Counted from the first letter of the stretch, positions 3,006-37,793 are shown. The stretch is 40,688 bases of DNA from an uncultured Alphaproteobacteria bacterium (GCA_903927415.1 CAIYMZ010000119.1:1-40688); one strand, 5' to 3'. Numbers and translations are program-made. The notes: generated by a model from the letters alone, not told the origin.

Positions 3006-3016
3006 GTTTAAAATTT

Positions 3017-3309: not shown

Positions 3310-5667
3310 CTAACCAAAAAATCCGCGGCGTTTTTTTGGAGCGCCGTCACGATCATCACGATCACGATTTTCACGTCTATCGCCACCGCGGTCATCACGA
3401 TCACGGCCTCCTCTTCTGTCTCCACCGCGGTCATCACGATCACGACCGCCGCCTCTTCTGTCTCCACCACGATCATCACGATCACGTCCGCCAGAACGAC
3501 GATCATCACGACCACCAGATTCTCTTTCGTCAACTATTTGAGGCTTGTTTGGCAAACGATCTGAAATGTCTTCTCCGGTAATTTGATCTACGCAACGGTA
3601 ACTCAATTTCGGACGACCTTTTTTGTCGAAGCCGATGACTTTAACTTTGACGATGTCGCCTTCATTGATGACATCTTCAACGAAATCAACGCGATATTCA
3701 GCAAGTTCAGAAATGTGAATGAATCCATCGCGATTATTTGAAACGCTAACAAAAGCCCCGGCATCGATCACTTTCACAACTGGACCTTCATAGATGTCAC
3801 CAATTTCTGGTTCAAAAGTAATTTCACGAATCATGGCGATAGCCTTCTTAACTGAGTCAGCATTGTTCGAAGAAATTTTGATGAGACCAGTGTCGTCAAT
3901 GTCGACAACTGCACCAGAAACTGAGCAGATTTCTTTGATCACCGCGCCACGTGAGCCAATAACTTCGCGAATTTTCTTTTGCGGGATAGTCATGGTTTCA
4001 ACTTTTGGAACGTTGGCATTGAGCTCTGCTCTAGGCGCGGTCATAACTTCGTCCATTTTGTCCAAGATGTGCAATCTGCCGACATTAGCTTGCTCAAGAG
4101 CGCGCTGCATGATGTCAGAAGTGATGCCGTTAATCTTGATGTCCATTTGCAAAGAAGTGATGCCTGTTCTGGTTCCAGCAACTTTGAAATCCATGTCACC
4201 GAGATGATCTTCGTCACCCATGATGTCAGACAAAATTACGTAATTGTTGCCTTCTTTGATGAGTCCCATCGCGATTCCAGAAACTGGCGCTTTGATTGGC
4301 ACGCCTGCATCCATCAATGCAAGTGAAGCGCCGCAAACTGTGGCCATTGAAGATGAACCGTTTGATTCAGTGATTTCAGAAACGATACGAGTTGAGTAAG
4401 AAAAATTTTCGGCAATTCCGGGGAATACTGGATTTAAAGCTCTCCAAGCCAATTTTCCGTGACCAATTTCACGACGTCCCGGGGCGCCCATGCGACCAGT
4501 TTCACCAACTGAGTAAGGAGGAAAATTGTAATGCAGCATGAAACTTTCTTCATGCATGCCTGGATCCAAGTTTTCGATTAATTGCTTGTCTTTGCCAGAG
4601 CCGAGAGTTGCAACAACAATGGCTTGGGTTTCGCCGCGAGTGAACAAGGCCGAACCGTGAACTTGTGGCAGAAATCCGGTTTCGATGGCGATTTGACGAA
4701 CTTGATCAGTCTTACGACCGTCGATTCTGATGCTGTTTTTCAAAACATCGTTGCGAACGATTTCTTGCGAAAGTGTTTTGAAGATTGATTTGAGTTTATT
4801 GGCGTCAACACCCGCTTCTTCATTGATGAATTTAGCTTTGATGTCGGCAGAAATTTGGTCGAGCTCACCAGAGCGAACTTGTTTAGCTTGCTTTTTGTAA
4901 GCACTGATTAAGCGGTCGCCGATGAAAGAAGTGATTTCGTTTTTGAGCGTAGAATTGTCGATTTTTACAACTTCAATTTTTTGTTTTCCTGCTGCAGATT
5001 TCAATTCATTGATCAAGTCAATTACGGGCTGGAATGCGGCGTGGCCGAAATTTACAGCTTCTAACATTTCAGCTTCAGACAATTCTTTTGCTTCAGATTC
5101 AATCATCAAAACTGATGATTGCGTTCCTGCAACAACTAGGTCTAAGCGACTGTTTTTAAGTTCTTCGGCGCTTGGATTTAAAACAAATTGGCCGTCGATG
5201 TGGCCAACTCTTGCGCCAGCAACAGCTTCCGAGAATGGAGCTTCAGAAATTGCTAGAGCTGCAGAAGCGGCAATGAGAGCAACAACGTCAGGAGTAGAGC
5301 TCGCATCGTAAGAAAGTACGGTGCAAACGACGTTAACTTCATTGTAAAAATTTGATGGGAAAAGCGGACGGATCGGACGATCGATCAAACGAGAGGTGAG
5401 CGTTGCAGCGTCAGATGGCTTAGTTTCGCGCTTAAAAAATCCACCAGGAATTTTTCCAGCAGCGTAAGATTTTTCGAGATAGTTAACGGTGAGTGGGAAA
5501 AAATCCGCACCTTCAGCAGCTTTATTTGCGACAGTTACGGCACAAAGAATTGTGGTATTGCCATATTTTGCGACCACTGATCCGCTTGCTTGGCGCGCGA
5601 TCTTGCCAGTTTCCAGAGATAGAATTTTTCCATTCCAGTTAATTTCTTTTTTTACAACATTGAACAT
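3310..5667 (-). CDS. pnp: Polyribonucleotide nucleotidyltransferase (PNPase) with an unusual ~75-aa Arg/Gly/Asp repeat tail
   Basis: 785 aa. It has two RNase PH domains, then KH (IGSRGAVIKEI-type) and S1 (GDIYEGPVVKVIDAGAFV) domains, and follows rpsO in the canonical order. Confidence 0.97.
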   Translation of the reverse strand: MFNVVKKEINWNGKILSLETGKIARQASGSVVAKYGNTTILCAVTVANKAAEGADFFPLTVNYLEKSYAAGKIPGGFFKRETKPSDAATLTSRLIDRPIRPLFPSNFYNEVNVVCTVLSYDASSTPDVVALIAASAALAISEAPFSEAVAGARVGHIDGQFVLNPSAEELKNSRLDLVVAGTQSSVLMIESEAKELSEAEMLEAVNFGHAAFQPVIDLINELKSAAGKQKIEVVKIDNSTLKNEITSFIGDRLISAYKKQAKQVRSGELDQISADIKAKFINEEAGVDANKLKSIFKTLSQEIVRNDVLKNSIRIDGRKTDQVRQIAIETGFLPQVHGSALFTRGETQAIVVATLGSGKDKQLIENLDPGMHEESFMLHYNFPPYSVGETGRMGAPGRREIGHGKLAWRALNPVFPGIAENFSYSTRIVSEITESNGSSSMATVCGASLALMDAGVPIKAPVSGIAMGLIKEGNNYVILSDIMGDEDHLGDMDFKVAGTRTGITSLQMDIKINGITSDIMQRALEQANVGRLHILDKMDEVMTAPRAELNANVPKVETMTIPQKKIREVIGSRGAVIKEICSVSGAVVDIDDTGLIKISSNNADSVKKAIAMIREITFEPEIGDIYEGPVVKVIDAGAFVSVSNNRDGFIHISELAEYRVDFVEDVINEGDIVKVKVIGFDKKGRPKLSYRCVDQITGEDISDRLPNKPQIVDERESGGRDDRRSGGRDRDDRGGDRRGGGRDRDDRGGDRRGGRDRDDRGGDRRENRDRDDRDGAPKKRRGFFG

Positions 5668-14554: not shown

Positions 14555-16888
14555 ATGCCAAAAGACATGAGAGGCGTTAGCGATAGACAAATGCGTAGGC
14601 AAGCTAGCCACATTGACGAAAGACGAGCTAGTCGCGAAGATAGAATAATAAGAGAAGCTGCTAACGCTTTTGCTAAGCAGCTTCAGAGTGCTGCAAGCAT
14701 AGATTACAAAGATTATAACGATCCGAAAAATTTCGTAGAAGCTTGGCATGATTTTGAAGAATTTTTTTCAGCGTCAGCAACTTCCGAGAAAAGCAGGGGA
14801 CGACGAGCCTCACTTTCTACAGGAACTGGTTCAAGCAGAAAACGTCTAGGAGCATTTCTGCTGGCACTGACAGTTCTCGAACTTGTTACCAGCACAAGCG
14901 CTAATATTTTTCAGCGAAACTTCGAAAATGATTCGCTTGGTAGCATTGGTAGTGATGGACCTGAAAGGCATGGTAATTTACGCGGAACGGTGGGAGATAA
15001 GAGCGAAAGAAGTGATGGTTACGCCGTTGCAACGGCGCACACAATGCCTGCGCCAGTTGCTATGCCAGCTACACCAGCTATGCCACCTGTTCCGAGAGAC
15101 TCTCTCGGAGAAATGGGGCGCGTCGACACTTTTCCATCAAAAAGACGTGCAAGAGAAGAATCTGCTAAGAGGAGAGTTCAATCGTATACGGATGAGGAAC
15201 TAACGCAGAGAGAAGGATTGAAGGTAGCTCTCGGTAAAAAAGTTAACGAATTTAGAAGGAAGCGCCCGAGCGAAAAAATTCCTATTGCCACTCTAGCAAA
15301 AGAAGCTGGGTTTCGTACCTACAATGAGGAGGGGAGCGATTATTATTCTGACATGGTGAATTTAGGATTTGTCTCGTTCGATGATATGGATTTAAGGAAC
15401 GCTGATTTTAAAGACACTGGACTTAGCGATGTGTCATTTAATCGATGCTCTTTGGTCAAGGCTGATTTTAGAGGAGCAACATTATTTAATAATAAGTTTA
15501 ATCAATGCGATTTGTCTCAAGCTAATCTTTCCAGTAATGAAGAAGATTCTTATGCTAGCATTTACCTCACCGATTCTAACTGCAATAGAGCAACTTTTGA
15601 AGGACTTGGAGGTGAAGTTTTGGTTGGATCTACACCAATAGGTGGATCAGATTTCAGAGACACAAATTGGAAAAACGCCGATATCACTCTCCTAGTAACA
15701 AATGTAGCAAATTCTTACCCCCAGTCATTGCCTGATGATGCCGAGCACAGGCCAGATTTTGAAGGCGCTTCTTGGGATGGTGCTAAACTTACATGCGAGA
15801 TGTCATTTTCTTCACGTCCAAATGCCTTAGCAAGAAACTTGCATTTTGACAAGGCGTCTCAGGTTACCAGCGTTACTTACCCTAAAGGCCTCAGTTATTA
15901 TGGGCGGATGGGTGCGTGGGGCGATGGCATGGAGGAAACAACGCATCCTTTAAACGGGGAAAGAGTAATTCACGATGATGCTCTTACTTCTGGCGCCGTT
16001 GTTGTTGGAGCTTCATCGGGTAATGAGACTGGTTTGATTGGCTTAAAAAGTGATCCCGCCTTGTGTGAAAGCATTGAAAGCGTTCCAAGCACAACTTTTG
16101 ACTCATCAACTGGACGAGATATAGCGGGATCGCATACGCTACATCCTTCCGGCATATCACAACCTCAACTAGGAGCTTTTGCTGGCGCTCTATCCAAGTT
16201 ATTCGAAAAATTGGAGGTTAATGCTGACATAATTAATCTCGATGCCTTGAAATCAGAGTTGGCGAATTCTGCAACTACTCCAGAAAGAGCTGCTGAAATT
16301 AATAAAGTTTTAGAACATTTTACTAAAGAATTGGGTAGCGATGAGACTTTGACTGACATAGAAAATATTTGTGGTGGCGGTGGTGGTCGTGACCCACTCT
16401 ACCTTGCTCCAGCGGTATTTCCAGCAGAGCCGGGAGCAATATCAACTCTTGTGGTAAGCGACGATGTAAAAAAATTTTTTCGCACATTTTTTGCCAGAAT
16501 TGGGTTTGCCTCTGATAGGCTTGATAAGGTCATCGATAATGGCGATGCTCAGAGAGTGCTCCAAGCAATTTACGGCAAAAGAGAAAAAGGTGAAGAATCA
16601 GCGACCGCTACGGGCGCTGGTCCAGGCGCTGGTCCGTCGGCAGAAACCCCTTCTTCGTCAGGAACAAATATTGGAGCTATAGTCGGTGGAATAGCGGGCG
16701 GAGTAGCGCTTATGATGATATGTTGCTGTGTAGCATGTTGCCGTGGCAACGATCAGAATCGTAGACGGCAACCTGATGGCGTAGGAGCCGGTGATGCTGC
16801 AGCAAATCCAGCTGCCCCAGGTACGACTGTGGCCGGAACAGCTGCTCATGTAGTAGCTGTCCCCAATAACCCGCTAACTATAGTTTAG
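14555..16888 (+). CDS. Large hypothetical protein with pentapeptide repeats and a Cys-rich C-terminal TM helix (effector/surface-protein candidate)
   Basis: 777-aa ORF with an AAGGAG SD at 14542-14547, 7 nt before the ATG. Pentapeptide repeats LRNADFKDTGLSDVSFNRCSLVKADFRGATLFNNKFNQCDLSQANLS lie at about 15380-15680. Hydrophobic segments are LGAFLLALTVLELV and IVGGIAGGVALMMICCCVACC. Confidence 0.75.
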   Translation: MPKDMRGVSDRQMRRQASHIDERRASREDRIIREAANAFAKQLQSAASIDYKDYNDPKNFVEAWHDFEEFFSASATSEKSRGRRASLSTGTGSSRKRLGAFLLALTVLELVTSTSANIFQRNFENDSLGSIGSDGPERHGNLRGTVGDKSERSDGYAVATAHTMPAPVAMPATPAMPPVPRDSLGEMGRVDTFPSKRRAREESAKRRVQSYTDEELTQREGLKVALGKKVNEFRRKRPSEKIPIATLAKEAGFRTYNEEGSDYYSDMVNLGFVSFDDMDLRNADFKDTGLSDVSFNRCSLVKADFRGATLFNNKFNQCDLSQANLSSNEEDSYASIYLTDSNCNRATFEGLGGEVLVGSTPIGGSDFRDTNWKNADITLLVTNVANSYPQSLPDDAEHRPDFEGASWDGAKLTCEMSFSSRPNALARNLHFDKASQVTSVTYPKGLSYYGRMGAWGDGMEETTHPLNGERVIHDDALTSGAVVVGASSGNETGLIGLKSDPALCESIESVPSTTFDSSTGRDIAGSHTLHPSGISQPQLGAFAGALSKLFEKLEVNADIINLDALKSELANSATTPERAAEINKVLEHFTKELGSDETLTDIENICGGGGGRDPLYLAPAVFPAEPGAISTLVVSDDVKKFFRTFFARIGFASDRLDKVIDNGDAQRVLQAIYGKREKGEESATATGAGPGAGPSAETPSSSGTNIGAIVGGIAGGVALMMICCCVACCRGNDQNRRRQPDGVGAGDAAANPAAPGTTVAGTAAHVVAVPNNPLTIV

Positions 16889-16925
16889 CCGTATTTCTTA
16901 AAAAGCTGCTTTAAAAAACTTCAGC

Positions 16926-16977
16926 GCCGAGGATCTCAGGGGTTCAGACTCAAAGCTGGACTCCTGAGATCCTCGGC
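16926..16977. repeat. Perfect 15-bp-arm palindrome downstream of the pentapeptide ORF
   Basis: gccgaggatctcagg (16926-16940) and cctgagatcctcggc (16963-16977) flank a 22-nt loop. No U-tract follows, so it is not a canonical terminator. Confidence 0.8.
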
Positions 16978-17051
16978 CTTACAGGCCAAGGATGACGAGA
17001 GAGGCGGCCTTCGCACCGATGACAAAACTTTTTAACATTTATTCAATCAAC

Positions 17052-18335
17052 ATGTCCAAAAAATCTTACAAAAAAACACACATCGAAAAGCACAAATTAC
17101 ATCCCGAAACGCAAATGATGTCCTACGGCTACGATCCCTTCATGTCAGAGGGCGCGGTGAAGCCTCCGGTTTTTTTGACTTCGACTTTTGCTTTTAAAAC
17201 AGCCGAAGACGGCGCCGAATTTTTTGACGTTGCTAGTGGCAGAAAACCAACTCCGAAAGGCAGCGTCGGCGGTTTGATCTACAGCCGCTTCAATCACCCC
17301 AATCTCGAAATCATTGAAGATCGTATTGCGCTTTTGGAAGGCGGCGAAATGTGCAATGTTTTTTCCAGCGGAATGGCGGCGATTAGTGCGATTTTTTTGG
17401 CCTTACTCAAGCCGAAAGATGTGCTCGTGCATTCCTTCCCGATCTATGGCGGCACTGAGTCCATCATCCACAAAGCGCTAAAAAATTGGGATGTTAATTC
17501 CGTCGAATTTAGTGACGGGCTCGAACAAAATTCGATTGAAATCGCGCTCGAAAAAGCAGCAAAAATTGGTCACGTTGGAATGTTATTCATCGAAACTCCC
17601 GCCAATCCCACCAACGCCTTAACCGACTTTTCCAAAGTAAAAAACGCCGTCGACAAGTTTGAAAAAAAACACGGCTACCGCGTCGTCACCGCTTGCGACA
17701 ACACTTTGCTTGGTCCCATTTTTCAAAAACCACTGGCGCACGGAATTGATTTGAGTTGCTACTCGCTGACGAAATATGTCGGCGGCCATTCTGATCTCGT
17801 CGCCGGCGCTGTAATCGGCAAAAAAGAATTAATGGACAAAGTGCGCGGAATCAGGAATGCCTTCGGTTCGCAGCTCGATCCTCATTCATCTTGGATGATC
17901 GGCCGCTCGCTTGAAACTTTATTTTTGCGCATGAAACGCGCCGAAGAATCAGCGCTCGAAATCACCGCTTGGATGAAAAAAACTTTTCCAAAAACAAAAA
18001 TTTTTCACCCGAAATACATCGTAAACAAAGAATATCAAAACACCTTCAAGCGGCAATGCACGGGCTATGGCAGCACTTTCGCTTTTGAAATTGAGGGCGG
18101 CAGAAAAAAAGCATTTAAGCTGATTAACGCGCTGACGATTTTTAAATCTGCGGTGAGTTTGGGCGGAACTGAATCGCTGGTTTGTCATCCGGCTTCAACG
18201 ACTCACTCGGGCATTCCAGAAAATTTGCGCAAAGAATTTGGGATTTCGGAGGGGTTAATTCGACTGTCGATTGGAATAGAAAATCCGAAAGATTTGATCG
18301 CGGATTTAAACGCTGCGTTTACTCGTATTTTCTAA
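17052..18335 (+). CDS. Cys/Met-metabolism PLP-dependent enzyme (cystathionine gamma-synthase / methionine gamma-lyase family)
   Basis: [19 protein letters not shown]-lysine motif plus YSRFNHPN and GGTESL motifs. The start at MSKKSYKK (17052) is preferred over the ORF start at 16992, which lies inside repeat-derived sequence. Confidence 0.85.
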
Positions 18336-21543: not shown

Positions 21544-22242
21544 TCACGGCCGCCAATTTAAAAAGTTTTTGAGTAATTTTAATCCCGCCTCGCCACTTTT
21601 CTCGGGATGAAATTGCGCACCGAAAATATTTTCCTTCGCCACAATCGCGGTGAGTTTTTCGCCATATTCTACTTGGGCTAAAACATTATTTTCATTTTGA
21701 CAGATGAAGTGAAAAGAGTTGGCAAAGTAAAAATGTTCGCCGTCTTTGATGTCTTTTAAAACCGCATGTTTATTGGGCTTCACGATGATGTTATTCCAAC
21801 CCATATGCGGGATTTTTAACTTAAAACCACCTCCCATCCCCCTAGATAGGGGGAGGTCACGCTGCGCTGCGCTGCGCGATGACATTTGTTCTGAATTAGC
21901 TCCGATTTTTTCGACATGGCCATTGATAAAACAAAGCCCCTGATGCTCACCATTTTCATATCCCACCGACGCCAAAACTTGCATGCCAACACAAATTCCG
22001 AGGAAAGGTTTTTTCTCGGTTAAAACTTGTTTTCTTAATTCTGGCAGCAGCCCTTCAATTGATTTTAAGCCTTCAACACAATCACCGAAAGCACCTACTC
22101 CTGGAAGGATTAAATGATTTGCAGATTTGAGATCAGCGGGATTATTTGAGACCAAAATTTCATCATCCCCTTTGAGCAAAAACAGGGCATTTAAAACAGA
22201 TTCAACATTGCCCGCACCGTAATCGATAACGACTATTTTCAT
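21544..22242 (-). CDS. hisH: Imidazole glycerol phosphate synthase glutamine amidotransferase subunit with in-frame repeat insertion
   Basis: Motifs MKIVVIDYGAGN, LPGVGAFG, GICVGMQ (catalytic Cys), PHMGWN, QFHPEKS. Confidence 0.9.
   Translation of the reverse strand: MKIVVIDYGAGNVESVLNALFLLKGDDEILVSNNPADLKSANHLILPGVGAFGDCVEGLKSIEGLLPELRKQVLTEKKPFLGICVGMQVLASVGYENGEHQGLCFINGHVEKIGANSEQMSSRSAAQRDLPLSRGMGGGFKLKIPHMGWNNIIVKPNKHAVLKDIKDGEHFYFANSFHFICQNENNVLAQVEYGEKLTAIVAKENIFGAQFHPEKSGEAGLKLLKNFLNWRP
21825..21883 (-). repeat. Family B double-hairpin element inside hisH
   Basis: The reverse complement gtcatcgcgcagcgcagcgcagcgtgacctccccctatctagggggatgggaggtggtt aligns with the rlmE copy. Confidence 0.85.
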
Positions 22243-22694
22243 GCGTGGCGCGGTTTTAATTTCATCATTTTGCGGTGAAGTTTTGGATTCAGAATTGAGT
22301 CGTCAAAATCGTCTGCACTCAGCTTTTGATCGGCTTCAAGATTTTTAATAAAACGCAATTTAGCGCTGGCACAATCATCGCCAAAAACCAATCCAACAAA
22401 TTCATAATTTTTCTTCTTGAGATGCTCGCAGAGCCAGTAATTGGCGTTGAGCGCAATGATGAAGATGAAAGCGATTTCTAGAGAAATTTTGTCGAAATCG
22501 GAAGAAATTTTACTAAAAGAAACGAAGGCAACATTGATCAACAGGATCATCAAAAACTCTTTCCACATCTTGTAGTAAAGAAACCACAGCCCGCTAAAAA
22601 AAAATGCTGCCCAAGAAAATCCTTCCTTGAGCAGCACAACGTCTTCGATTTTTCCGGCGGAATTTTTTTTAATTAAGGCGTTGAAAATTTTCAT
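22239..22694 (-). CDS. DUF2628-type small membrane protein
   Basis: 151 aa. VVLLKEGFSWAAFFFSGLWFLYYKMW resembles the DUF2628 core as I remember it from alphaproteobacterial his loci. Confidence 0.6.
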   Translation of the reverse strand: MKIFNALIKKNSAGKIEDVVLLKEGFSWAAFFFSGLWFLYYKMWKEFLMILLINVAFVSFSKISSDFDKISLEIAFIFIIALNANYWLCEHLKKKNYEFVGLVFGDDCASAKLRFIKNLEADQKLSADDFDDSILNPKLHRKMMKLKPRHA

Positions 22695-26720: not shown

Positions 26721-26978
26721 TCAAAAACTCTCCACTATCCTCACCTCCAGCGCATGCAGCCCCTTCCCAAACTCCTCTTTCAGTAGCTGATTGATCTTCC
26801 GATGCGCTGCGATTTTACTCATCCCACCCAACTCCTCCGCCCCAATCACAATCGCGAAATGCGTTTCGCCACTTCCATCATCTCCTAAATGCCCAGCATG
26901 AAGCTGTGAATTATTTTTCACTTCCAAAAATCTCGGCCGCAAATTTTCTCGCAAATTTTCTTCGATTCTTTTTTTCAT
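26721..26978 (-). CDS. BolA family protein (second paralog)
   Basis: 85 aa with SQLHAGH...THF.IVI....F.GMS.I..HR.I..LL.EE...GLHAL. Confidence 0.75.
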   Translation of the reverse strand: MKKRIEENLRENLRPRFLEVKNNSQLHAGHLGDDGSGETHFAIVIGAEELGGMSKIAAHRKINQLLKEEFGKGLHALEVRIVESF

Positions 26979-27230
26979 CTGTTCAAAATTCTGTTAATAA
27001 TTTGTTAAAAAAACCTCACTTATTCACCAAAGAATTTTTTCTCAAAAACTTATTATTTTTTTCCACATTTTTTTAACATATTTTCCTATTGTTAAAAAGT
27101 TTTTTTAAGAAAAATTTAATTGTTAGTAAATGGTTTAAGCCCTGTATTTTCAACTATCTAGACTGTTAATAAAATTGTGAAAAAATTTTAATTAAGAAAT
27201 TCACAGCACTAATAAATTCATCTAAAATAA
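26979..27230. other. Candidate chromosomal replication origin (alphaproteobacterial hemE-linked type) and divergent promoter region
   Basis: This is a 252-bp very AT-rich spacer directly upstream of hemE. TTAA-N7-TTAA sites lie at 26994-27008 and 27105-27119. DnaA-box-like 9-mers are TTATTCACC (27020-27028), TTTTCCACA (27059-27067) and TGTGAAAAA (27176-27184). TGTTA(A/G) occurs 5 times. Confidence 0.45.
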
Positions 27231-28256
27231 ATGAGTAAATTAATTAATACTCTTCTTAAAAAAGAGAGTTTCGAATCACCGCCGATTTGGATCATGCGTC
27301 AAGCTGGAAGATATTTACCAGAATATCGCGAAGTGCGTTCAAACGTAAAAAATTTTCTCGAGCTTTGTTACTCACCAAAACTTGCAAGCGAAGTCACATT
27401 GCAGCCAATCCGTCGATTTGATTTTGACGCTGCGATTATTTTTTCCGACATTCTTGTAATCCCAGACGCGCTCGGCGTGAAAGTCGAATTCGTAAAAAAT
27501 GAAGGACCGAAGCTCGGAAAATTTGAATTGTCGCAGCTTAAAACAAATCGCATCGCATCGCATTTAAATCCAGTTTTCGAAGCGCTAGCGCTCACAAAAT
27601 CAAAACTTGATCCCTCGAAGGCTTTAATCGGTTTTTCCGGCGCTCCGTGGACTTTAGCCTGCTACATGATCGAAGGTGGTGGATCAAAAAATTTTGAACT
27701 AACGCGTCAAACTGCAATCCAAAATGAAGATTTTTTTTCACAGCTGATTAAAATTTTAACTCAAAGCGTGACCGAATATTTATCGTTGCAAATCAAGGCT
27801 GGAGCGGATTGCGTCAAGTTGTTCGATTCTTGGGCGGGAGTTTTACCATCGCAGCAATTGCAAAAATGGGTGATTGAACCAACTAAAAAAATCGTCACTG
27901 AAATAAAAAAACTTCACCCAGAAATTCCGGTAATTTGCTTCCCACGTGGTATCGGAATGAATTACAAAACATTCTCACGAAGCGTTATGCCTCACGGTTT
28001 GGCAATCGATCAAACAATCGAAAAAAATTGGGCTAAAAAAAATCTCGGACAAGTGCTGCAAGGAAATCTCGACAATTTTCTTCTCGCTTTTGGCACAAAA
28101 AAACAAATCGAAAAAGAAGTTTTGGAAATTTTGGAGATATTTAGAAACCAACCATTCATCTTCAATCTCGGTCATGGAATTTTGCCGGAAACGCCGATTG
28201 AGAATGTGGAGTTGGTGGTAAAACTAATAAAACAAAAAAGGAGAAATTATGTCTAG
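27231..28256 (+). CDS. hemE: Uroporphyrinogen decarboxylase
   Basis: 341 aa with the PPIWIMRQAGRYLPEYR signature and the DSWAG and GHGI motifs. Confidence 0.95.
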   Translation: MSKLINTLLKKESFESPPIWIMRQAGRYLPEYREVRSNVKNFLELCYSPKLASEVTLQPIRRFDFDAAIIFSDILVIPDALGVKVEFVKNEGPKLGKFELSQLKTNRIASHLNPVFEALALTKSKLDPSKALIGFSGAPWTLACYMIEGGGSKNFELTRQTAIQNEDFFSQLIKILTQSVTEYLSLQIKAGADCVKLFDSWAGVLPSQQLQKWVIEPTKKIVTEIKKLHPEIPVICFPRGIGMNYKTFSRSVMPHGLAIDQTIEKNWAKKNLGQVLQGNLDNFLLAFGTKKQIEKEVLEILEIFRNQPFIFNLGHGILPETPIENVELVVKLIKQKRRNYV

Positions 28257-29976
28257 AGTTCAAGTTCAAACACAGCATCAACATCAAGACCAAATAACTC
28301 CAATAGCAGTAAGTTTTGAATATGCGGCAAATGGAAGACATAAATTTCCAGAGCAAGTGGGTGGAAGTTTTTATGAGGGCGGTCATCTGGATAATAAATT
28401 TAAAAAATTAGCCCAACAGGATAGAAATTGGTTTCATAGATTCGCAAGTGCCAGTGGAAATATACCAAATGCGCAGAAAGTTGAAGGATTAGAGGTAATT
28501 GAAGAGATTAGAAAAACGGACCCAGAAAAACTGAAAGAAGCATTGGGACAAAAAGATAAGTTTGGTTGGAAGCCAATGCATTATGCGGCATGGTGTGGAA
28601 GTGACTCGGCATTGGAATCATTGGTGAGTGCGAGTGGCGAAGTTTCTGATCAAGATATGGGAAATATGCTCTTTTTAGCGATGGCAAATAACAGAGCGGC
28701 TGCAAATTTTAAAAAATTAACCGAAATTTGCGCAAGGTCTGGGAGACATCCGGAAGAATATTTTTTTACTGACGGAAGTTTACCGGAAGAGTTGGCTGGA
28801 GCTGGTCTTGGTGGAGCTGCTGTCGTTAGAGGTGGCGGAGCTGCTGCTGGAGGTGGTGGTGAAGGAGCTGCTGCTGGCGGAAGATTAGTTTGTACTAAAA
28901 ATTTATTAGATATAGCGGCGGAATATGGCAATGTGGAGGTCATGGAATTTCTTTTAAATAGAGGAAGATTGTCGATCGATGGAATGACTGATGTTCCAGT
29001 TGTGGATCAAAGACATTCAAAGCCTATGGACGAAAACAATCCAAAAATGATCCGAGGAAAATTTTCAAGCTTCGATAAAAGCCCGCTATATCTAGCAACT
29101 AAAGGGCTTCATGTTGAGGCTGTAAGATTTTTAATTGCAAAAATTGAAGAGAGAAATGGGGGAGAGGCTGTAGAAAGATACGTTGCTCAAAGGATGCACG
29201 ATAGAAGTGATTTTGGAAATGGTGGAGACATAGTAAGTCTAGCTGCACTAGCTGCCAGAGAAGGATTAAAATGGTGGAATAATGTTGACGAAGAACATTC
29301 GTCGCATGACAAAAAAACTCGCGATCAATTTAAGGAAAATGCAAAGGAAGGATTTTTTGATCCGGCTGGGTATCATTATGCTCGATTTAGCCCAGAGGGT
29401 GCGACCGAAACAGCGAGAGTTTTACTGCATGTTGCAACGCCAGAGATTACAATTTTTCCGTTTTTATATCCAAAGGAGGAGGTGATAAGGGAATGTGTCA
29501 TCCCAGAGAGAGTCGAGGCCTATCGAATGCCAATACTCATGGAGGCGTTATTTGCTACGGCTAATTCTTCTCCACTTACCAAGTTCAAGTTAAGTCGTGA
29601 TCGTGAGCCATATCCAAACATTCAGTTATTGGCGGAATTGCTTCAAATAAAACCAGAGAAAGAAAAATCCCTATCAGACATTGCGCTACTTGCAGTTTTA
29701 ACAGCAATACCAGGCATGGATACTGACGATGAAAGAGCTGTGCGGGCAATCGAAGAAGTGATAAATGACAACAATACTCTCAAAGATTTTACCCCAGAGT
29801 TTCGGGGACGTGTTCGCGACGATATAGCAAAATATGCGAAAGCGCAGATCGAAAAAATAAGATCCGAAGGTGGCGGAGCTGCTGCCGTTGCTCCATCAGG
29901 AGAAGTTGCGGCTGCAGGAGGTGCTGTGCTTGATGATGGAGGTGTAGAACAAGTAGGGAAAGACGGAAGAAGTTAA
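28249..29976 (+). CDS. Ankyrin-repeat protein with Gly/Ala-rich tracts (effector candidate)
   Basis: 575 aa with an AAGGAG SD at 28238-28243; the ATG overlaps the hemE stop (ATGTCTAG). ANK-like units are GWKPMHYAAWCGSDSALESLV, LLDIAAEYGNVEVMEFLLNRG and SPLYLATKGLHVEAVRFLI. Low-complexity tracts are GGAAVVRGGGAAAGGGGEGAAAGG and GGGAAAVAP..AAAGGA. Confidence 0.8.
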   Translation: MSRVQVQTQHQHQDQITPIAVSFEYAANGRHKFPEQVGGSFYEGGHLDNKFKKLAQQDRNWFHRFASASGNIPNAQKVEGLEVIEEIRKTDPEKLKEALGQKDKFGWKPMHYAAWCGSDSALESLVSASGEVSDQDMGNMLFLAMANNRAAANFKKLTEICARSGRHPEEYFFTDGSLPEELAGAGLGGAAVVRGGGAAAGGGGEGAAAGGRLVCTKNLLDIAAEYGNVEVMEFLLNRGRLSIDGMTDVPVVDQRHSKPMDENNPKMIRGKFSSFDKSPLYLATKGLHVEAVRFLIAKIEERNGGEAVERYVAQRMHDRSDFGNGGDIVSLAALAAREGLKWWNNVDEEHSSHDKKTRDQFKENAKEGFFDPAGYHYARFSPEGATETARVLLHVATPEITIFPFLYPKEEVIRECVIPERVEAYRMPILMEALFATANSSPLTKFKLSRDREPYPNIQLLAELLQIKPEKEKSLSDIALLAVLTAIPGMDTDDERAVRAIEEVINDNNTLKDFTPEFRGRVRDDIAKYAKAQIEKIRSEGGGAAAVAPSGEVAAAGGAVLDDGGVEQVGKDGRS

Positions 29977-30988: not shown

Positions 30989-31792
30989 TCAAGATTGGCG
31001 ACATAGATATGAAATTTTTTTCAACGGATTTTTGATTGAATAAAAGGCTAGAAAAAAATCTAAATTTAGATGGATTTTATTCAGGTAGAAACGCATCAGA
31101 TTTTTTTGGTTAAGCTCGTATGGATGAATGTAGATCACCGGCTTCACCCGCTCATTTTCCAATTTCTTGAATAAAACTTTTTGCAGCAATAGCGGCAAAA
31201 CGCGCAAATAAAACCCTCCGCTAAAAGGAACGCCGCATTTTGGTAAAGGAATTTCAGTAATATTTCCAAATTTTGTTTCCACTTCAAACGGCAATTTTTT
31301 ATCTTCACTTTGACCATACATGTAAGTTTTAAACGGCATGTATGAGGATGAAAATGAATAGCCATTTTTTGCCAAAATTTCGTAGTAAGAATTTTCAAAA
31401 GGCATCGACCAGCTAGCAGCTCTGTAACCTCCAATCTCCCTCCCAGTCAAATCTTCAAGTATTGTTTTTGCTTTAACGATTGATTGCTCCCACTCATCTA
31501 AACTGATTTTATAAACCAAGCGATGGTCGAAACCATGTGAAGCAATTTCAAAATCAGCGTCACTTAATTTTTTAATAATCTTCGGATATTTTTGAGCGAA
31601 GCTTCCCAGCACAAAACAGGTCGATTTCATTTTTAACTTAGCACAGAACTCAATCCAATTGTCGATCATCTTCTCGTAATCCACATCACTAAAATCCGGT
31701 CTTGGCAATAAATTAAAATTACTGTCGAGCAATTCCTCTACATCAAGAGTGAGCCAAATTTTATTTTCTTCGTAAACCGAACTTACCGTCAT
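30989..31792 (-). CDS. Polysaccharide deacetylase (CE4-like)
   Basis: 267 aa with LTLDVEE (Asp motif 1) and ASHGFDH (His-His motif 2). Its ATG overlaps the stop of the upstream GMC gene (ATGA). Confidence 0.8.
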   Translation of the reverse strand: MTVSSVYEENKIWLTLDVEELLDSNFNLLPRPDFSDVDYEKMIDNWIEFCAKLKMKSTCFVLGSFAQKYPKIIKKLSDADFEIASHGFDHRLVYKISLDEWEQSIVKAKTILEDLTGREIGGYRAASWSMPFENSYYEILAKNGYSFSSSYMPFKTYMYGQSEDKKLPFEVETKFGNITEIPLPKCGVPFSGGFYLRVLPLLLQKVLFKKLENERVKPVIYIHPYELNQKNLMRFYLNKIHLNLDFFLAFYSIKNPLKKISYLCRQS

Positions 31793-33397
31793 AAATTTTT
31801 CTCTTTGATTGCAGAGATCAAATTTTTAGCAATGCGATCTGCATTAGCCATTATTGTAAAACTGTGTGGCTTGGCTGGAAGAGTCGTGAGCGCAGCACCA
31901 TCAACTACGTAAATTCCTAGCATTGCCGCCACTTCACCATCCTTGGTTAATTCGTATTTTTTTGTTGGATTCTCTCTCATTTTTAAAGTTGCCGCGTAGT
32001 GAATATCTTCACCTAACTCGGTTAATTTAAAACTTCCCGGCAGCATAAATGCACCATAGAACATCATAGTTTTTGTTAGGCGTTTTTTTATATCTTTGAC
32101 GACATCAAGAATGCCATCTTGGTAAGCACCATTAATTTGCATTTTTCCGGCAGAATTAATTTTTATTTTACTCGCCGAATAATCACCGCTTAAAAAACAA
32201 TTTCCTAAAATCATTGATGGCTGTAGCGCCAAAATGATCTTTCTTGCAGCCGGATAGGAGAAAGGAACATGATGAATATATTCCGAAGACAATATCGCAT
32301 CAGCAGGAAAAAGACTGGCTAGCGCGTAATTTTGTGGTTTTTTTTGTTAGCAATCACTAAGGAAATTTGTCCGGTGGAAAGCACTTTATTTTCTACTTTT
32401 GATCCCAAACGCTCCGGCATAAAAAATGCAAATCCCGCAGCAGGATTGGTCACCAGATCAATCTCTTGATCGTAAATTTTTAAAGCATCCAGAACCAGTC
32501 TGGTCGTAGCAATCGCACCTAACGCTAGAATTATTTTTTTTCCCGAAAATTTTACTCTTGTCGAATTTTTCTCATCCTCACCACTTAGCTCGTATAAACC
32601 ATCAACACCACTTTCCAATTTATCAATAAACACACTGCTGATATAGTAAAAATTGGGATATTTTTTTAGCTTCTCTAAATCAAATCTTGCCGAATAAATT
32701 GATTTGTTGGCACAACCCCAAACACATAGGCCAGAATAGCTACAAGCTTCTCTTTCTTCTTTTTTTCACTCAAAACCGCAATTCTATTGCGACCAATTTT
32801 AATATCGTTGCTATTGGCAAATTGAGGATTTTTTTGGTAACGATTTAATATTTTTTTTGCGTTACAATTAATCTCCGTAGCACTCTGTAATTCAATTCCA
32901 TTGCCATGAAATTCAGAAACATCATCATTTTTAACGCCGCTGACTCCGATACGCTTTGCCACATCTTGGTAAGATTTTTCCAGATCAGATTTTGTGATTG
33001 GAAATTTTTCTAAATCCACTTCATCAAAACATCCAACCCCCGCACCCCAAGCATTAGAAAGACCCCCAGCAGCAAGTGATCCCGATAAAATAAAGTTATT
33101 AGTCTCTGGCTGATATTTTTCGTGGTAGTCGGCAAAAATATATTTATTGGTTACTGCACGTAACTTGGGAGAAGAGGATGAAATTTTTTCCCAATCATCA
33201 AGATTATCAAAAATAGGATTCGACTCAGATTTAGTGCGCAAATCAAAATAAGTGGAGCCTTTCTTGAGTGAATTTTTTTGTTCATTGCCGAAATCAATCA
33301 TCACAACTTTTAACCCAGCTTCGATAAGAGGGAATGCAGCTGAAACTCCAGAATGACCACTGCCAACAATGATTACATCTTGATTAAATATGGTCAT
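31789..33397 (-). pseudogene. GMC-family FAD oxidoreductase split into three ORFs by two frameshifts at poly-A tracts
   Basis: The N-terminal piece has IIVGSGHSGVSAAFPLIEAGLKVVMIDFG (the FAD GxGxxG motif). The C-terminal piece has a GMC-like ...VVDGAALTTLPAKPHSFTIMANADRIA. The three frames join at A7 (32760-32766) and A8 (32338-32345) to give about 536 aa. Confidence 0.8.
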
Positions 33398-34641
33398 GCG
33401 GCGGATTTTAAATTACGCAGAAACTTTGTGATGATGCCCATAAAAATTAGCAGAAACTCAAACGACATCATCAAGACAATCTTCAGCGTCGCTTTAACTA
33501 ATCCGATTTCTTTGAATGGAATAAACTGTGACGAAGCTTTGGAATCGCTTTCAGCAATTATCAAAGCCAGTTTCAGACGTCGATCCAATTCATTTTTATT
33601 TGCAAATTTTTGTAAAAAAATTGGGCTGCGCGGATCAATCAATCGTAGTAAAACCGGACAGCTTAAATATATTTTAGAAATTCGCAGCGGCCCTGCTGAA
33701 GTCATTGCTTTGACATATTTTTTAGCAAAAAATTTATTATGTTTTGCGCCAGAAACATATTGCATCAGTGCTTTTCCCTCAAGAAGTAATCTCTTTCTTG
33801 ATACTAATTCACCACTCTGAAGACCATCCTTTAAATTTCTTAGATTAAAATTCTCATCAACTTTCATAACTCGCAAAGCCAGCAATCCATTGACACGCTC
33901 AGGATCAATAATTTTGATAAAACCTGCAAAACGTAAAAATAAATGTGGCAAAGGAATTAAAATTAAATGTCGCCAAAATTTGTACCACGCCAAATTTTGT
34001 AAAAATTCTGTAATCGCAATCGGATTTCTTTGTGCAATATTATGTTGAGATTTTGTTTGACCGCTGATCACCAAGCTCAGTAATACCTTGCTCAAATCTT
34101 CAACATGAACCGGCTGAACATAAATCTTTGGTAAGAATTCCGGCAAGATTGGCAAGATTTTTGCCAATTTACAAAAAGTACCGAAAAGCGCGTGCTCCTC
34201 TTCGCCATAAACCAATCCAGGACGCACAACAATGCCGTTATTTTTCAACACCTCTTCTTCAAGCAGATATTTTCTGTACCCGTAATTAGTTGGGGAATTT
34301 TTCGATGCGGATTGACTGGAAATAAAAATGAAATTTTTTATTCCATTTTTTTGCACCTCCTCCAGCAAATTTTTTAAAGCGAACAATTCGAGATCGATGA
34401 CTTTCTGATTCGATATTTGTGAATTAGTAACCGTAGCAAGATGTATTAGTGCATCCACCATTTCGAAAGAACGAGAATCTGGAATAGAATCAAGATCGTA
34501 GTGAAAAAAATTTAAACCATTTTTATCACAACATGCCGCTTTATTTCTGACTAAAGCGTTAACCTTAAAACCTTGCTGTAAAGCTGATTTTACTAGAGAT
34601 TTTCCGATATAACCATTAGCGCCAGTGATGGCTATTTTCAT
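33394..34641 (-). CDS. Extended SDR (NAD-dependent epimerase/dehydratase/reductase fold) with about 120-aa C-terminal extension ending in a hydrophobic helix
   Basis: MKIAITGANGYIGKSL Rossmann motif, a YGYRK (YxxxK) catalytic motif, and the C-terminal LKIVLMMSFEFLLIFMGIITKF. Confidence 0.75.
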   Translation of the reverse strand: MKIAITGANGYIGKSLVKSALQQGFKVNALVRNKAACCDKNGLNFFHYDLDSIPDSRSFEMVDALIHLATVTNSQISNQKVIDLELFALKNLLEEVQKNGIKNFIFISSQSASKNSPTNYGYRKYLLEEEVLKNNGIVVRPGLVYGEEEHALFGTFCKLAKILPILPEFLPKIYVQPVHVEDLSKVLLSLVISGQTKSQHNIAQRNPIAITEFLQNLAWYKFWRHLILIPLPHLFLRFAGFIKIIDPERVNGLLALRVMKVDENFNLRNLKDGLQSGELVSRKRLLLEGKALMQYVSGAKHNKFFAKKYVKAMTSAGPLRISKIYLSCPVLLRLIDPRSPIFLQKFANKNELDRRLKLALIIAESDSKASSQFIPFKEIGLVKATLKIVLMMSFEFLLIFMGIITKFLRNLKSAA

Positions 34642-34941
34642 TTTTTTGAATCTTTGAACACAACGTAACGAACTAATAAAAAGCTAACTCCTACACAAGA
34701 AATATCTGATAAAATTTTTGCCAGCCATTCTTCAGAAAACTTCGACAAAACGATTAAGATCAAAGATCCCAGCGCCATATTTACAAATAACATTGCGACA
34801 TAGCGAAAAATTTCACCCAATATTTATGCAATTGGATAAAACAAGGTGCACACCAATTTTTGCGATCAACATAAAAGTTGAAAACTCTAAAGCGTAAGCT
34901 GCGACTTGGACCAAATTGTAGCGCACAAATTTTGCCAACAT
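34638..34941 (-). pseudogene. GtrA-like small membrane protein, interrupted by a 1-nt frameshift
   Basis: The N-terminal half, MLAKFVRYNLVQVAAYALEFSTFMLIAKIGVHLVLSNCINIG*, runs from 34941 to 34813. The C-terminal half (ORF 34638-34820) reads ..GEIFRYVAMLFVNMALGSLILIVLSKF...LLVRYVVF. Deleting one G of the GGG run (34816-34818) fuses them into about 100 aa. Confidence 0.65.
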
Positions 34942-35750
34942 TACTTTCGCCTTAGAACAATAATATGATGCAGAGCAAAAATTTTTAACATTGGAGTCAG
35001 GCAGAATTCCAGTAATTTTATTGGACCCTCAGCACGTCTCGGCACCAAGGTTTTAAAATTAAGACCACCCGACAAAAGATATCTTAAGTAATTGGTTAAA
35101 GGCCTTTGATAGACTATCTCTAGCTCTTTAAAATTTTTTTTAAAAATCTTCCGATCGCGCTCAAAAATTATGTAGCTAAGGGCCTGATTTGGCTTGTCAT
35201 TTTCAGCAATATTCCATTCTCCATTCTTGTTAAAATCTTCTGCGGAAAATAAATGCTTAAACAGAAAACTTGCCACAAGCCCGTAATAAGGCTCAATCAA
35301 AATTGCAACTCCCCCAGATGCTAGTACGCGTTCTAACTCATTAAAAAATTTTGATGGCTCAGGAAAATGATGGAAACAATTTTGTCCGTAAATCGCTCTA
35401 ACGCTGCCAGAATCAACGTCCATATTTAATGCATCTAACACTCTATCTAAATGATCAGCTTCAACAATATCTGTTGCTAAAACCTGCGGATAAGAATTTT
35501 TTATCGGATAAACACCAGCTCCAAGTTCAATGGAAATACCTTGGGCATTAATCGAATATTGTTGATCAAGATTTTTGATTTCGTGATGAAATTCTTCAAA
35601 AACATGTCTTAAAATTGGTTTACGATTCAGAGCCTGCTTGTGTAGAGTCAATCGGTTCAAGGCATTGGGATTAAGATTCATCATTCCTTTTTCACACAAG
35701 CTGTCGCGTAACCAATTCAAAAGTTTTATTATTTTAAGATCTCTTTTCAT
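34941..35750 (-). CDS. Class I SAM-dependent methyltransferase
   Basis: 269 aa with SIELGAGVYP (motif I) and a Methyltransf_11-like post-I/II region ...CFHHFPEPSKFFNELERVLASGGVAILIEP. Confidence 0.75.
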   Translation of the reverse strand: MKRDLKIIKLLNWLRDSLCEKGMMNLNPNALNRLTLHKQALNRKPILRHVFEEFHHEIKNLDQQYSINAQGISIELGAGVYPIKNSYPQVLATDIVEADHLDRVLDALNMDVDSGSVRAIYGQNCFHHFPEPSKFFNELERVLASGGVAILIEPYYGLVASFLFKHLFSAEDFNKNGEWNIAENDKPNQALSYIIFERDRKIFKKNFKELEIVYQRPLTNYLRYLLSGGLNFKTLVPRRAEGPIKLLEFCLTPMLKIFALHHIIVLRRK

Positions 35751-36714
35751 CTAGATGGATTAGTAGCGGCGTTTGTGGAGTAATTGTAACGTCGTAATTG
35801 ATGAAAGATAAAATTAGCTGCATACCTAAAATAATTGGAAGAGTAGCAATCATCACCACGCCGCTTGAGGAAAATCTATTGTGATAAGCAGATTCTATCC
35901 AGGCGCTGGCCCCATAAATTGCGCCAAAAGATGTCGCCGCCACTCCTACAACCAAACAAACTGAAGCAAAGGAGAAGTCTTTGATGTAGTAGTTGTAAGC
36001 TATGCGCTTCAACGTATTGCGTAAATGCTTGGATAAAAATGGCATGACGATTTTTTTGATCGAGAGATTGCTAACTTCGCTGCCGTAATTTGCCTTCATC
36101 GGCACATCGACTACCACAGCACGAATGATGTTTAAACGAAACAAAATATCTGATTCGAAGAAATATCTTCCGTCGATCTTGTCCAAAGCCATACATTTTA
36201 TGACGTCAGTATGTATTGCGGTGTATCCATTGGTTGGGTCAAAAACATTCCAATAGCCTGAAGAAAGTTTGGTCAAGAATGATAAAATCGCATTGCCAAT
36301 CAAGCGCACGCGAGGCATTGACATCACGTCATCCGGATTAAAGAAGCGATTTCCCTTGGTGTAGTCAGCTCTTCTTTTAATGATTGGAGCAACAAACTGA
36401 TGAATTAATTTTGGATCCATTTGGCCATCGCCATCCACCTTCACCACAATATCAATTTCATCTTTGATGGCCTCTTTATAGCCCCGCATTGTGGCACCGC
36501 CAACGCCAAGATTTTTTTCGTTGTAGATTACGCGAACCCTTTCATCTCGACAGTTTTCTTCTACGTATTTCCCGGATTCATTCGGACAGCAATCGTCAAC
36601 CACATAAATCATACTCACCTCGCTACCAATCTCTTTGATTACGCCCAAAATATGAGATTTAACTTTGTAGCAGGGAATAATAACGCCAATTTTTTCTTTG
36701 GGTTTTGCAGTCAT
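35734..36714 (-). CDS. Family 2 glycosyltransferase with two C-terminal TM helices (GtrB/ArnC/polyprenyl-phosphate sugar synthase type)
   Basis: VIIPCYKV, VVDDCCPNESG and VKVDGDGQMDP (DxD) motifs, plus C-terminal helices FASVCLVVGVAATSFGAIYGASAWI and VVMIATLPIILGMQLILSFI. Confidence 0.85.
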   Translation of the reverse strand: MTAKPKEKIGVIIPCYKVKSHILGVIKEIGSEVSMIYVVDDCCPNESGKYVEENCRDERVRVIYNEKNLGVGGATMRGYKEAIKDEIDIVVKVDGDGQMDPKLIHQFVAPIIKRRADYTKGNRFFNPDDVMSMPRVRLIGNAILSFLTKLSSGYWNVFDPTNGYTAIHTDVIKCMALDKIDGRYFFESDILFRLNIIRAVVVDVPMKANYGSEVSNLSIKKIVMPFLSKHLRNTLKRIAYNYYIKDFSFASVCLVVGVAATSFGAIYGASAWIESAYHNRFSSSGVVMIATLPIILGMQLILSFINYDVTITPQTPLLIHLDEKRS

Positions 36715-36719
36715 AAAAA

Positions 36720-37793
36720 TTAAAAATAATCGATGTCACTTAGAGTGAGATGCAGCGCAGTTTCTTGCTCCATCGCCATTAAGGAAGGATTATTGGCGTG
36801 AACAAAAATTGGAGTCGCGTGCGGCAAAAACTTGTCCGGCACTCCGACAAAAGGAAGGCCAAGAAATTTTTTACTAAGTTTTGTGCGCGGATTTAATAGC
36901 GTAAAAATAATATCAGCATCAGACAACATCGCTTTTTTTATGAGCAAGCAACGCAATGCAAAAGCCCGAAGCTTTGATAATTCATCATTCAGCAAAAAAT
37001 CCATAATCACAAAAAAACTGCAACCACTCAATTCAAGCTGTCGCCACACAATATAACCAAAATATTTTTCCTGCCCGTACACATGCGATACGCCGGCTTT
37101 CCACAAGGGGGCATCGCGGAATCGCCATTGTAATATTTCTTGATTGCGCACCGTCAAAAAATTATTTTTCTGACATTCTTTCTGACAGAATTCGTCGAAA
37201 TCTTGCGGACATTTTTCGCTTAAATTTACCGGGATAAATTTTCTGACCAAGTAAAGAAATGCCTCGAGAGTAAGTCGATATGGCGCGCCCATTAACTTTA
37301 AAAAAATATTTCTCAGATAAAATTTTTCCGGAAATAACTTACCTAATTTTAAAGGCAGTCCGAATCCTTGAAGAGAAAATGGATTGGAAAATCGCAGAAT
37401 CTTTTTGTAAATATTTTCAGTTTTCTCGTTTGAGGAATGAAAAATGACGTCGAAATCTTTAGCCTCTTTAATCGCCAAAGTCAGAGATAAAAAATTGCTC
37501 ACTGGCCTTCTGTAGCTTGGATGGACAAGGGCATCGGTAACAAAGGCCGCTTTGATTTTTTTGTCAGAGAGCTGAAATGTTCTTGGCTGAAGAATTGTAC
37601 GGCCGACTATTTTATCGCCGTCTTTTAGATGAAGAGCGGTCGATGCCCCAAACGGACCATTCAAATGCTTCCAGTTTAAGTGATCTTTCGATGTAACCGC
37701 TGGTAAATCGCCATATTCAACGCGAGATAATTTTGCAAATTCAGCAATAATTTCAGGACTAAATTTTTCGGATACGATATTGCATTTGCTCAT
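36720..37793 (-). CDS. GNAT-fold (two-lobed, FemAB/CelD-like) acyltransferase
   Basis: 357 aa. The N-terminal lobe, ...KIVGRTILQPRTFQL...AAFVTDALVHPSYRR, resembles an acyl-CoA/ACP N-acyltransferase core. The assignment rests on fold-level resemblance only. Confidence 0.5.
   Translation of the reverse strand: MSKCNIVSEKFSPEIIAEFAKLSRVEYGDLPAVTSKDHLNWKHLNGPFGASTALHLKDGDKIVGRTILQPRTFQLSDKKIKAAFVTDALVHPSYRRPVSNFLSLTLAIKEAKDFDVIFHSSNEKTENIYKKILRFSNPFSLQGFGLPLKLGKLFPEKFYLRNIFLKLMGAPYRLTLEAFLYLVRKFIPVNLSEKCPQDFDEFCQKECQKNNFLTVRNQEILQWRFRDAPLWKAGVSHVYGQEKYFGYIVWRQLELSGCSFFVIMDFLLNDELSKLRAFALRCLLIKKAMLSDADIIFTLLNPRTKLSKKFLGLPFVGVPDKFLPHATPIFVHANNPSLMAMEQETALHLTLSDIDYF

Follow-up and report, generated by a model that had tools for sequence, protein, structure and literature searches.

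Does the short spacer between a bolA-like gene and hemE hold the chromosomal origin of an uncultured, Rickettsiales-labelled freshwater alphaproteobacterium? The question arises at positions 26,979 to 27,230 of a 40,688-nucleotide stretch of DNA, which was analyzed as a whole and is called the window below. Origins linked to hemE have been established experimentally in Caulobacter and predicted in Rickettsia (hemE/COG1806), Wolbachia, Ehrlichia and Anaplasma (COG1253/hemE), with hemE as the constant partner and a second flank that changes through rearrangement (PMC1914354). The criteria for such an origin, after Brassinga 2001 and Ioannidis 2007 (PMC1914354), were applied to the spacer. The original prediction placed an alphaproteobacterial origin of this type in the spacer. 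That proposal is supported by a conserved array of DnaA-box-like 9-mers upstream of hemE and by the GC skew of related genomes. Based on these sequence comparisons, we consider it likely that the bolA-hemE spacer is the chromosomal oriC, of the hemE-linked type.

The bolA-hemE spacer

The spacer and its boundary genes are as follows.

26721-26978, minus strand: bolA-like gene, left boundary (NCBIfam BolA, E=3.5e-11), divergent from hemE
26979-27230: candidate oriC spacer, 252 bp, 80% AT, with eleven DnaA-box-like 9-mers
27231-28256, plus strand: hemE (uroporphyrinogen decarboxylase), right boundary (TIGR01464, E=8.6e-115)

The GC content of the spacer is 0.20, compared to about 0.42 for the window. 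Among the 19 window spacers of at least 60 bp, it has the highest AT content, which bears out its original description as the most AT-rich long spacer, and no comparable spacer was found within the window. It is also the weakest 250 bp of the window in duplex stability, at -271 kcal/mol versus -301 kcal/mol for the next weakest segment. The comparison of AT content and site counts covered the 40.7-kb window and loci of up to 21 kb each. Within the 5' coding part of the bolA-like gene, we observed a perfect 12-bp tandem duplication (CGCAAATTTTCT x2, positions 26938-26961) that keeps the reading frame and lengthens the gene by four codons.

A structured RNA or leader in the spacer was ruled out by a fold z-score of +0.35, and Rfam models matched only tRNA across the whole window. 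The IHF consensus WATCAN5WTR was absent from the window and from 11 of 16 relatives, and no match occurred at a conserved position. No dnaA, the landmark of the dnaA-adjacent type of oriC (rnpA-rpmH-dnaA-dnaN-gyrB context), was found among the annotated window genes.

DnaA-box-like 9-mers in the spacer

The motifs listed in the original prediction are all present. Two exact TTAA-N7-TTAA sites lie at 26994-27008 and 27105-27119, the three near-consensus 9-mers are TTATTCACC at 27020, TTTTCCACA at 27059 and TTTTTCACA on the complement of 27176-27184, and the five TGTTA(A/G) hexamers were located at 26992, 27003, 27090, 27121 and 27164. Across the whole window, however, neither class of site is enriched over shuffled sequence. 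TTAA-N7-TTAA has five matches against 2.2 expected, with 9 of 100 shuffles reaching five, and TTATNCACA with at most one mismatch has 26 matches against 34 expected. These whole-window counts do not exceed those of shuffles and were therefore dropped as stand-alone evidence.

Counts within the spacer gave a different picture. Strict TTATNCACA has no exact match and five one-mismatch matches there, and strict TTWTNCACA has only two matches, with most boxes carrying A at position 6. The recurring unit is instead the 9-mer TGTTAAWAA (reverse complement TTWTTAACA) or TTWTYCACA. The TGTTAAWAA form, mentioned only in passing by the original prediction, proved to be the real core of the signal. The pattern TTWTNMACA, a consensus picked after the data had been viewed, matches the 252-bp spacer eight times versus 0.45 expected; none of 5000 dinucleotide shuffles of the spacer reached eight, and every other window spacer has at most one match. 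The original caveat that such motifs arise easily by chance in AT-rich DNA applies to the whole-window counts; the local cluster exceeds what shuffles of the spacer give. An unbiased k-mer count also ranked TGTTAA/TTAACA first, though with a modest excess (5 versus 0.71), and a repeat finder independently returned three double-box modules at 26992-27013, 27057-27078 (inverted) and 27164-27185. Same-orientation tandem pairs with gaps of 2-3 bp are present, and the DnaA-trio pattern (NAN x3) is uninformative in DNA that is 80% AT.

Eleven boxes are conserved upstream of hemE in related genomes

We take the decisive support for the array to be comparative, rather than a matter of single-window counts. 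A scan with the hemE protein, using one genome per species, yielded 80 loci. The closest are from lake and groundwater MAGs, most of which carry the label Rickettsiales or Alphaproteobacteria; their hemE is no more than 78% identical to that of the window. Approximately 20 relatives keep the order clpP-clpX, bolA (minus strand), spacer, hemE (plus strand). The spacer is mostly 250-300 bp long in these genomes (range 214-312 bp; 472 bp in L021), in contrast to 339-637 bp for the rpmI-grpE spacer of the same genomes. In all 26 clade relatives, the region directly 5' of hemE has the highest TTWTNMACA density per 300 bp, with 5-13 matches compared to three or fewer elsewhere in the locus (up to 21 kb per locus).

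Alignment of 17 spacers, from genomes with hemE 62-78% identical, resolved eleven orthologous boxes, B0 to B10. The boxes and the intervals between them are listed below with window coordinates; fractions refer to the aligned sequences.

26980-26988, minus strand: box B0, TTTTGAACA (plus strand TGTTCAAAA), from the alignment; relatives have TTATTAACA or TTTTTAAC
26992-27000, minus strand: box B1, TTATTAACA; TTATTAACA in 15/17 orthologous sites, TGTT.AT invariant
27003-27011, minus strand: box B2, TTTTTAACA; 2 bp from B1, B1-B2 distance 11 bp in 17/17
27020-27028, plus strand: box B3, TTATTCACC; relatives have TTATTCACA, TTATCCACT or TTATTAACA; B2-B3 distance 17 bp in 17/17
27029-27058: AT-rich B3-B4 interval of fixed length; B3-B4 distance 39 bp in 17/17
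27059-27067, plus strand: box B4, TTTTCCACA; fits strict TTWTNCACA
27070-27078, plus strand: box B5, TTTTTAACA; 2 bp from B4, B4-B5 distance 11 bp in 17/17
27090-27098, minus strand: box B6, TTTTTAACA, from the spacer alignment
27099-27120: second tract rich in AT (91%), one of the window's least stable stretches at the 30-mer scale; holds the TTAA-N7-TTAA at 27105-27119
27121-27129, minus strand: box B7, TTACTAACA (plus strand TGTTAGTAA); relatives have TTATTAACA or TTATCAACA
27130-27163: B7-B8 linker, weakly conserved, in two length classes about 10 bp apart
27164-27172, minus strand: box B8, TTATTAACA; 15/17 identical
27176-27184, minus strand: box B9, TTTTTCACA; 3 bp from B8, fits strict TTWTNCACA
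27197-27205, plus strand: box B10, AAATTCACA, the most degenerate; relatives have TTATCCACA or TAATTCACA
27186-27217, plus strand: conserved non-box blocks TTTAATTAA and CAGCNCTAATAAA (also given as CTAATAAA), just 5' of the hemE ATG, with invariant columns

A position weight matrix built from the 176 orthologous sites reads T/T/(A,T)/T/(T,C)/(A,C)/A/C/A. The classical DnaA box is TT(A/T)TNCACA, a consensus reportedly from Schaper and Messer in 1995 that a preprint also gives. Judged from the aligned sites, the box consensus of this clade, TT(A/T)T(T/C)(A/C)ACA, differs from the classical TTWTNCACA in that position 6 may also be A. TTATCCACA, TTATTCACA, TTTTCCACA and TTATTAACA replace one another at orthologous sites; at B5, for example, L003, L005 and L007 have a perfect TTATCCACA where the window has TTTTTAACA. 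With this variant allowed, the eleven DnaA-type boxes form a cluster, above a threshold of four, that is conserved and exceeds chance. Invariant columns are concentrated in the boxes (46/99, versus 15/153 outside; Fisher P=5e-11). The spacing is equally constrained: B8 and B9 lie 12 bp apart (N8) in 15/17 sequences, and the B7-B8 distance falls into classes of 42-44 or 51-53 bp, approximately one helical turn apart. Sequence, order, orientation and helical phase that are kept while hemE identity falls to 62-78% point to a defined multi-protein DNA complex as the probable occupant of the spacer.

Some conserved positions lie outside the boxes. The non-box blocks at 27186-27217 probably serve as the promoter of hemE: TTAATT (27188-27193) resembles a -35 element and TAATAA (27210-27215) a -10 element. 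A promoter scan gave matches at the consensus level only, on both strands, and several of these use box cores as -35 hexamers. Within the B3-B4 interval, block AAAAACTTATTA (27044-27055) is invariant among the 17 aligned spacers at columns 27044-27048, 27050, 27052, 27053 and 27055, and fits no DnaA, CtrA or IHF consensus. The interval as a whole (27029-27058) is a candidate unwinding element or a candidate site for another protein. The second AT-rich tract, 27099-27120, may be another unwinding element because it is among the least stable 30-mers.

The array follows hemE and not its other neighbor. hemE adjoins the array in the window and in all relatives, and the left neighbor is replaceable: katG in L008 and queD-like or SDR genes in L015 and L019 occur instead of bolA, and L009 also differs. 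In each of these four loci the array stays beside hemE. The L008 case is a catalase-peroxidase (katG-like) gene, L008:7471-9699, inserted between bolA and the array, which remained with hemE. The second boundary genes of known hemE-linked origins, COG1806/DUF299 or COG1253/CBS, are not adjacent to the spacer in the window, and COG1806 was found only at the distant loci L049 and L050. There, COG1806 (DUF299, PF03618) and aroE are followed by three or four boxes, including TTATCCACA, and then by hemE. Since L049 and L050 show the canonical arrangement, the window's clade fits the same pattern with a new left neighbor.

GC skew and gene orientation around the spacer

Analysis of GC skew, which the original prediction proposed to plot on the whole genome or contig, gave no support for an origin within the window. 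The all-site skew is -0.002 to the left of the spacer and -0.032 to the right, without a switch; the fourfold-site, orientation-corrected side coefficient is -0.01, which is no origin signal, and the cumulative curve likewise has none. The right flank contains a low-GC block of polysaccharide genes (30.9-37.8 kb) that is absent from relatives and has atypical codon-position skew, and this block probably masks any skew signal in the window. Read depth is of little help over such a distance, as the expected gradient across 20-40 kb is approximately 1-2%, below noise.

Related genomes behaved differently. In all 18 close-clade loci, fourfold-site skew corrected for orientation rises from the left side of the spacer to the right side, whereas control splits at -5 kb and +6 kb in these loci gave mixed signs. 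The 18 loci are not independent tests, because most of their left flanks are syntenic; four loci with other left flanks (L007, L009, L015 and L019) agree in raw skew counts. When all sites are counted, 12 of 14 loci combine a negative left flank with a positive right one, the flanks being only about 10 kb long, and in six of the 14 the cumulative curve reaches its minimum no more than 550 bp from the start of hemE. The polarity of the skew in relatives is that of an origin, not a terminus. A distant sub-clade (L023, L024 and L042) has the opposite sign.

The main alternative is that the spacer serves for regulation or titration and is rich in DnaA boxes for that reason, either as a DnaA-controlled divergent bolA/hemE promoter or as a reservoir resembling datA or DARS, and that the origin lies elsewhere, for example beside dnaA. 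Both promoters must fit into the spacer, and several boxes double as -35-like hexamers (TTAACA, TTCACA). The missing skew signal in the window is in keeping with this reading, as is the orientation of the right-hand genes: all 12 genes beyond hemE and the ankyrin gene would meet a rightward fork head-on. The original prediction had entered a caveat about the mostly minus-strand genes on this side. As originally stated, dnaA is absent from the window, with none among the annotated genes and no tblastn match. In relatives, a dnaA query found no tblastn match within 10 kb of hemE, and a search of the window and the 80 loci with E. coli DnaA and Caulobacter CtrA queries returned only two distant response regulators at unrelated loci. 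On the other side, eleven phased boxes with invariant spacing far exceed the need of known DnaA-regulated promoters, the skew of relatives switches at this position with origin polarity, and Caulobacter has its experimentally established hemE-linked origin at the corresponding place (PMC1914354). We therefore regard a purely regulatory or titration role as improbable.

CtrA-type sites and possible binding by other proteins

A second alternative is that the 9-mers are operators for another regulator of hemE and bolA, either CtrA (TTAA-N7-TTAAC) or a lineage-specific factor that binds TGTTAA. Most boxes contain TTAAC, the A at position 6 is unlike the classical DnaA box, and box pairs separated by 2 bp read exactly TTAA-N7-TTAAC. 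The TTAA-N7-TTAA at 26994-27008 is the exact overlap of B1 and B2 and is kept in 13/17 sequences, and B4-B5 and B8-B9 also read TTAA-N7-TTAAC in some relatives. However, the 26994 site is a by-product of the array, because two TTWTTAACA boxes set 2 bp apart necessarily read TTAA-N7-TTAAC. Where TTAA-N7-TTAA is lost at B1-B2, the change is A to G, and the resulting TTATCAACA is still a DnaA-type box. The other exact site, 27105-27119, was rejected as a conserved CtrA element, as it occurs in one of the 17 sequences, that of the window. The TTATCAACA replacements, the N8 spacing of B8-B9 and the restriction of the 27105 site to the window therefore place the constraint on the 9-mer and not on TTAA-N7-TTAA. 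Moreover, TTATCCACA, TTATTCACA and TTTTCCACA appear at orthologous positions; these have no TTAA yet fit the DnaA box. The 9-mer also lacks symmetry and is found alone as well as paired. Operators for a protein other than DnaA are thus more improbable still than a regulatory or titration region.

Both CtrA-type sites cited as evidence in the original prediction exist, but neither is independent: one coincides with a box pair, and the other is peculiar to the window. By this analysis the spacer appears to have no independently supported CtrA sites, and the involvement of CtrA is hypothetical. The box of this lineage may have shifted to TTWTTAACA such that DnaA and CtrA compete for identical base pairs at the 2-bp box pairs. 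We think this unlikely on balance, but, if true, it would equip this compact origin of 252 bp with a minimal built-in on/off switch. Such an arrangement would differ from that of Caulobacter, where the DnaA and CtrA sites are overlapping neighbors.

Finally, the whole-window counts within the range of shuffles and the modest window-only k-mer enrichment would suit motifs that match by chance in an AT-rich spacer that does no more than carry promoters, but this is extremely improbable given that no local-composition shuffle reached the observed count, that invariant columns cluster in the boxes, and that the spacing is invariant at these levels of hemE divergence.

Comparison with known origins

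The spacer, read as an origin, resembles the Caulobacter crescentus Cori in lying directly upstream of hemE, in being AT-rich with several DnaA boxes, in having TTAA-N7-TTAA sites that overlap DnaA boxes, and in placing the hemE promoter, here a probable one, inside the origin region (PMC1914354). It differs from Cori in its bolA-like neighbor in place of COG1806/DUF299, in its length (252 bp versus approximately 400 bp), in its eleven A6-variant boxes versus five, and in the absence of an IHF consensus. Its single conserved TTAA-N7-TTAA coincides fully with a box pair, unlike those of Cori, and its function is a prediction.

Similar comparisons apply to the predicted origins of Rickettsia, Wolbachia, Ehrlichia and Anaplasma (Ioannidis et al. 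2007, PMC1914354). As in those genomes, hemE is the constant boundary and the other gene is variable, AT content is above the genome average, and the call is an in silico one based on the number of sites and their conservation. The origins in that study are 383-620 bp long and have two to four DnaA boxes, scored against TTATNCACA, plus IHF sites. The array described here is shorter and denser, with eleven boxes in 226 bp and rigid phasing, and it does not pass the strict TTATNCACA and IHF criteria.

The variant box has precedents outside the alphaproteobacteria. TTATTAACA is annotated as a putative DnaA box in the origins of Mycoplasma hominis, M. mobile and M. arthritidis (PMC2751442). The mollicute boxes are the same 9-mer, which matches the E. 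coli box at 7/9 positions, and occur in AT-rich genomes, but those origins lie beside dnaA, have one or two boxes and belong to unrelated lineages. In its same-orientation pairs (B1-B2, B4-B5 and B8-B9) with adjacent AT-rich tracts, the spacer also resembles the arrays of E. coli oriC and the "basal unwinding system" of tandem boxes (PMC8287927, PMC8235120). That system combines tandem DnaA boxes at most 3 bp apart with a GC spacer and three or more DnaA-trios (PMC8287927).

Neighboring genes in the window

Several other features of the window were recorded.

28249-29976, plus strand: 575-aa ankyrin-repeat protein, with an 8-bp overlap with the hemE stop codon and GC skew of +0.26 to +0.30
30989-37793, minus strand: block with GC 0.35-0.41, encoding a deacetylase with DUF3473, an NAD-dependent epimerase, a methyltransferase, a GT2 glycosyltransferase and several ORFs without matches
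22239-22694, minus strand: 151-aa protein with a sub-threshold Erum7620/ECH_0207 match (E=1.3e-10, 41.8 bits versus a cut-off of 90)
14555-18335, plus strand: 777-aa pentapeptide-repeat protein and a Cys/Met-metabolism PLP enzyme
3310-5667, minus strand: pnp gene, with a long C-terminal tail of repeated RGG/DRDD motifs (GGRDRDDRGGDRR...) in region 5400-5667 (3' end)
3017-3247, minus strand: second small BolA-like ORF, 76 aa
2685-3005, minus strand: monothiol-type glutaredoxin gene

The ankyrin gene is missing in most relatives, in which a murU-like gene lies directly 3' of hemE, and it looks like a lineage-specific insertion beside the candidate origin. The block at 30989-37793 is non-syntenic with any relative and has atypical fourfold-site skew; it may be a horizontally acquired surface-polysaccharide island. 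The region at 14555-18335 has been inserted, in the window, between genes that lie side by side in L004, L006 and L020; of its two genes, L001 has just the one for the PLP enzyme, at its locus edge. The gene for the 151-aa protein is flanked by rplT and hisH and has conserved counterparts in relatives (37-69% identity), and the family to which it has its sub-threshold match comprises putative T1SS effectors of Ehrlichia. To our knowledge, an RGG/DRDD-repeat tail is unusual for a bacterial PNPase.

Glutaredoxin and BolA genes usually occur as a pair, and the small BolA-like ORF at 3017-3247 is directly upstream of the glutaredoxin gene. The window would therefore contain two BolA-family genes, the smaller one being assigned by its appearance. 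The second-best cluster of boxes in the window, at approximately 2920-3140, falls in and around this small ORF, and was set aside because there is no spacer there.

Discussion

The eleven 9-mers are kept in sequence, order and spacing in approximately 20 relatives, and the spacer is therefore very probably a chromosomal origin. We infer DnaA as the binder, the place of unwinding and the start of replication at the spacer. In the model that we favor, domain IV of DnaA would bind the eleven 9-mers through the consensus TT(A/T)T(T/C)(A/C)ACA, and the same-orientation pairs with gaps of 2-3 bp (B1-B2, B4-B5 and B8-B9) would allow DnaA to oligomerize side by side. A 2-bp spacing of the DnaA sites of E. 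coli oriC was reportedly described by Rozgaja et al. in 2011. The rigid distances, together with the one-turn change in the B7-B8 linker, would hold the boxes in helical phase and give rise to a defined nucleoprotein complex, which could then open the DNA at one or the other neighboring AT-rich tract (27029-27058 or 27099-27120), within the 250 bp of lowest duplex stability in the window. Most likely, the spacer belongs to a class of element that was to be expected, here in a new lineage, and is set apart by its compactness, the density of its boxes, the A6 variant, the bolA-like neighbor and the lack of an IHF consensus.

If this reading is correct, the array would provide a box-by-box description of the origin for a family-level group of uncultured freshwater alphaproteobacteria known only from fragmented MAGs. 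It could be used to anchor and orient assemblies, to estimate growth rates from coverage (peak-to-trough) in lake metagenomes, and in a future shuttle vector. The variant box also bears on how origins are detected, as strict E. coli-type scoring (TTATNCACA) combined with an IHF criterion would miss or under-score this otherwise very clear candidate origin. The A6 variant and the coincidence of box pairs with CtrA-type sites are simple hypotheses that lend themselves to work in vitro. For the biology of the group, these loci suggest that the linkage between hemE and the origin persists through several replacements of the other flank.
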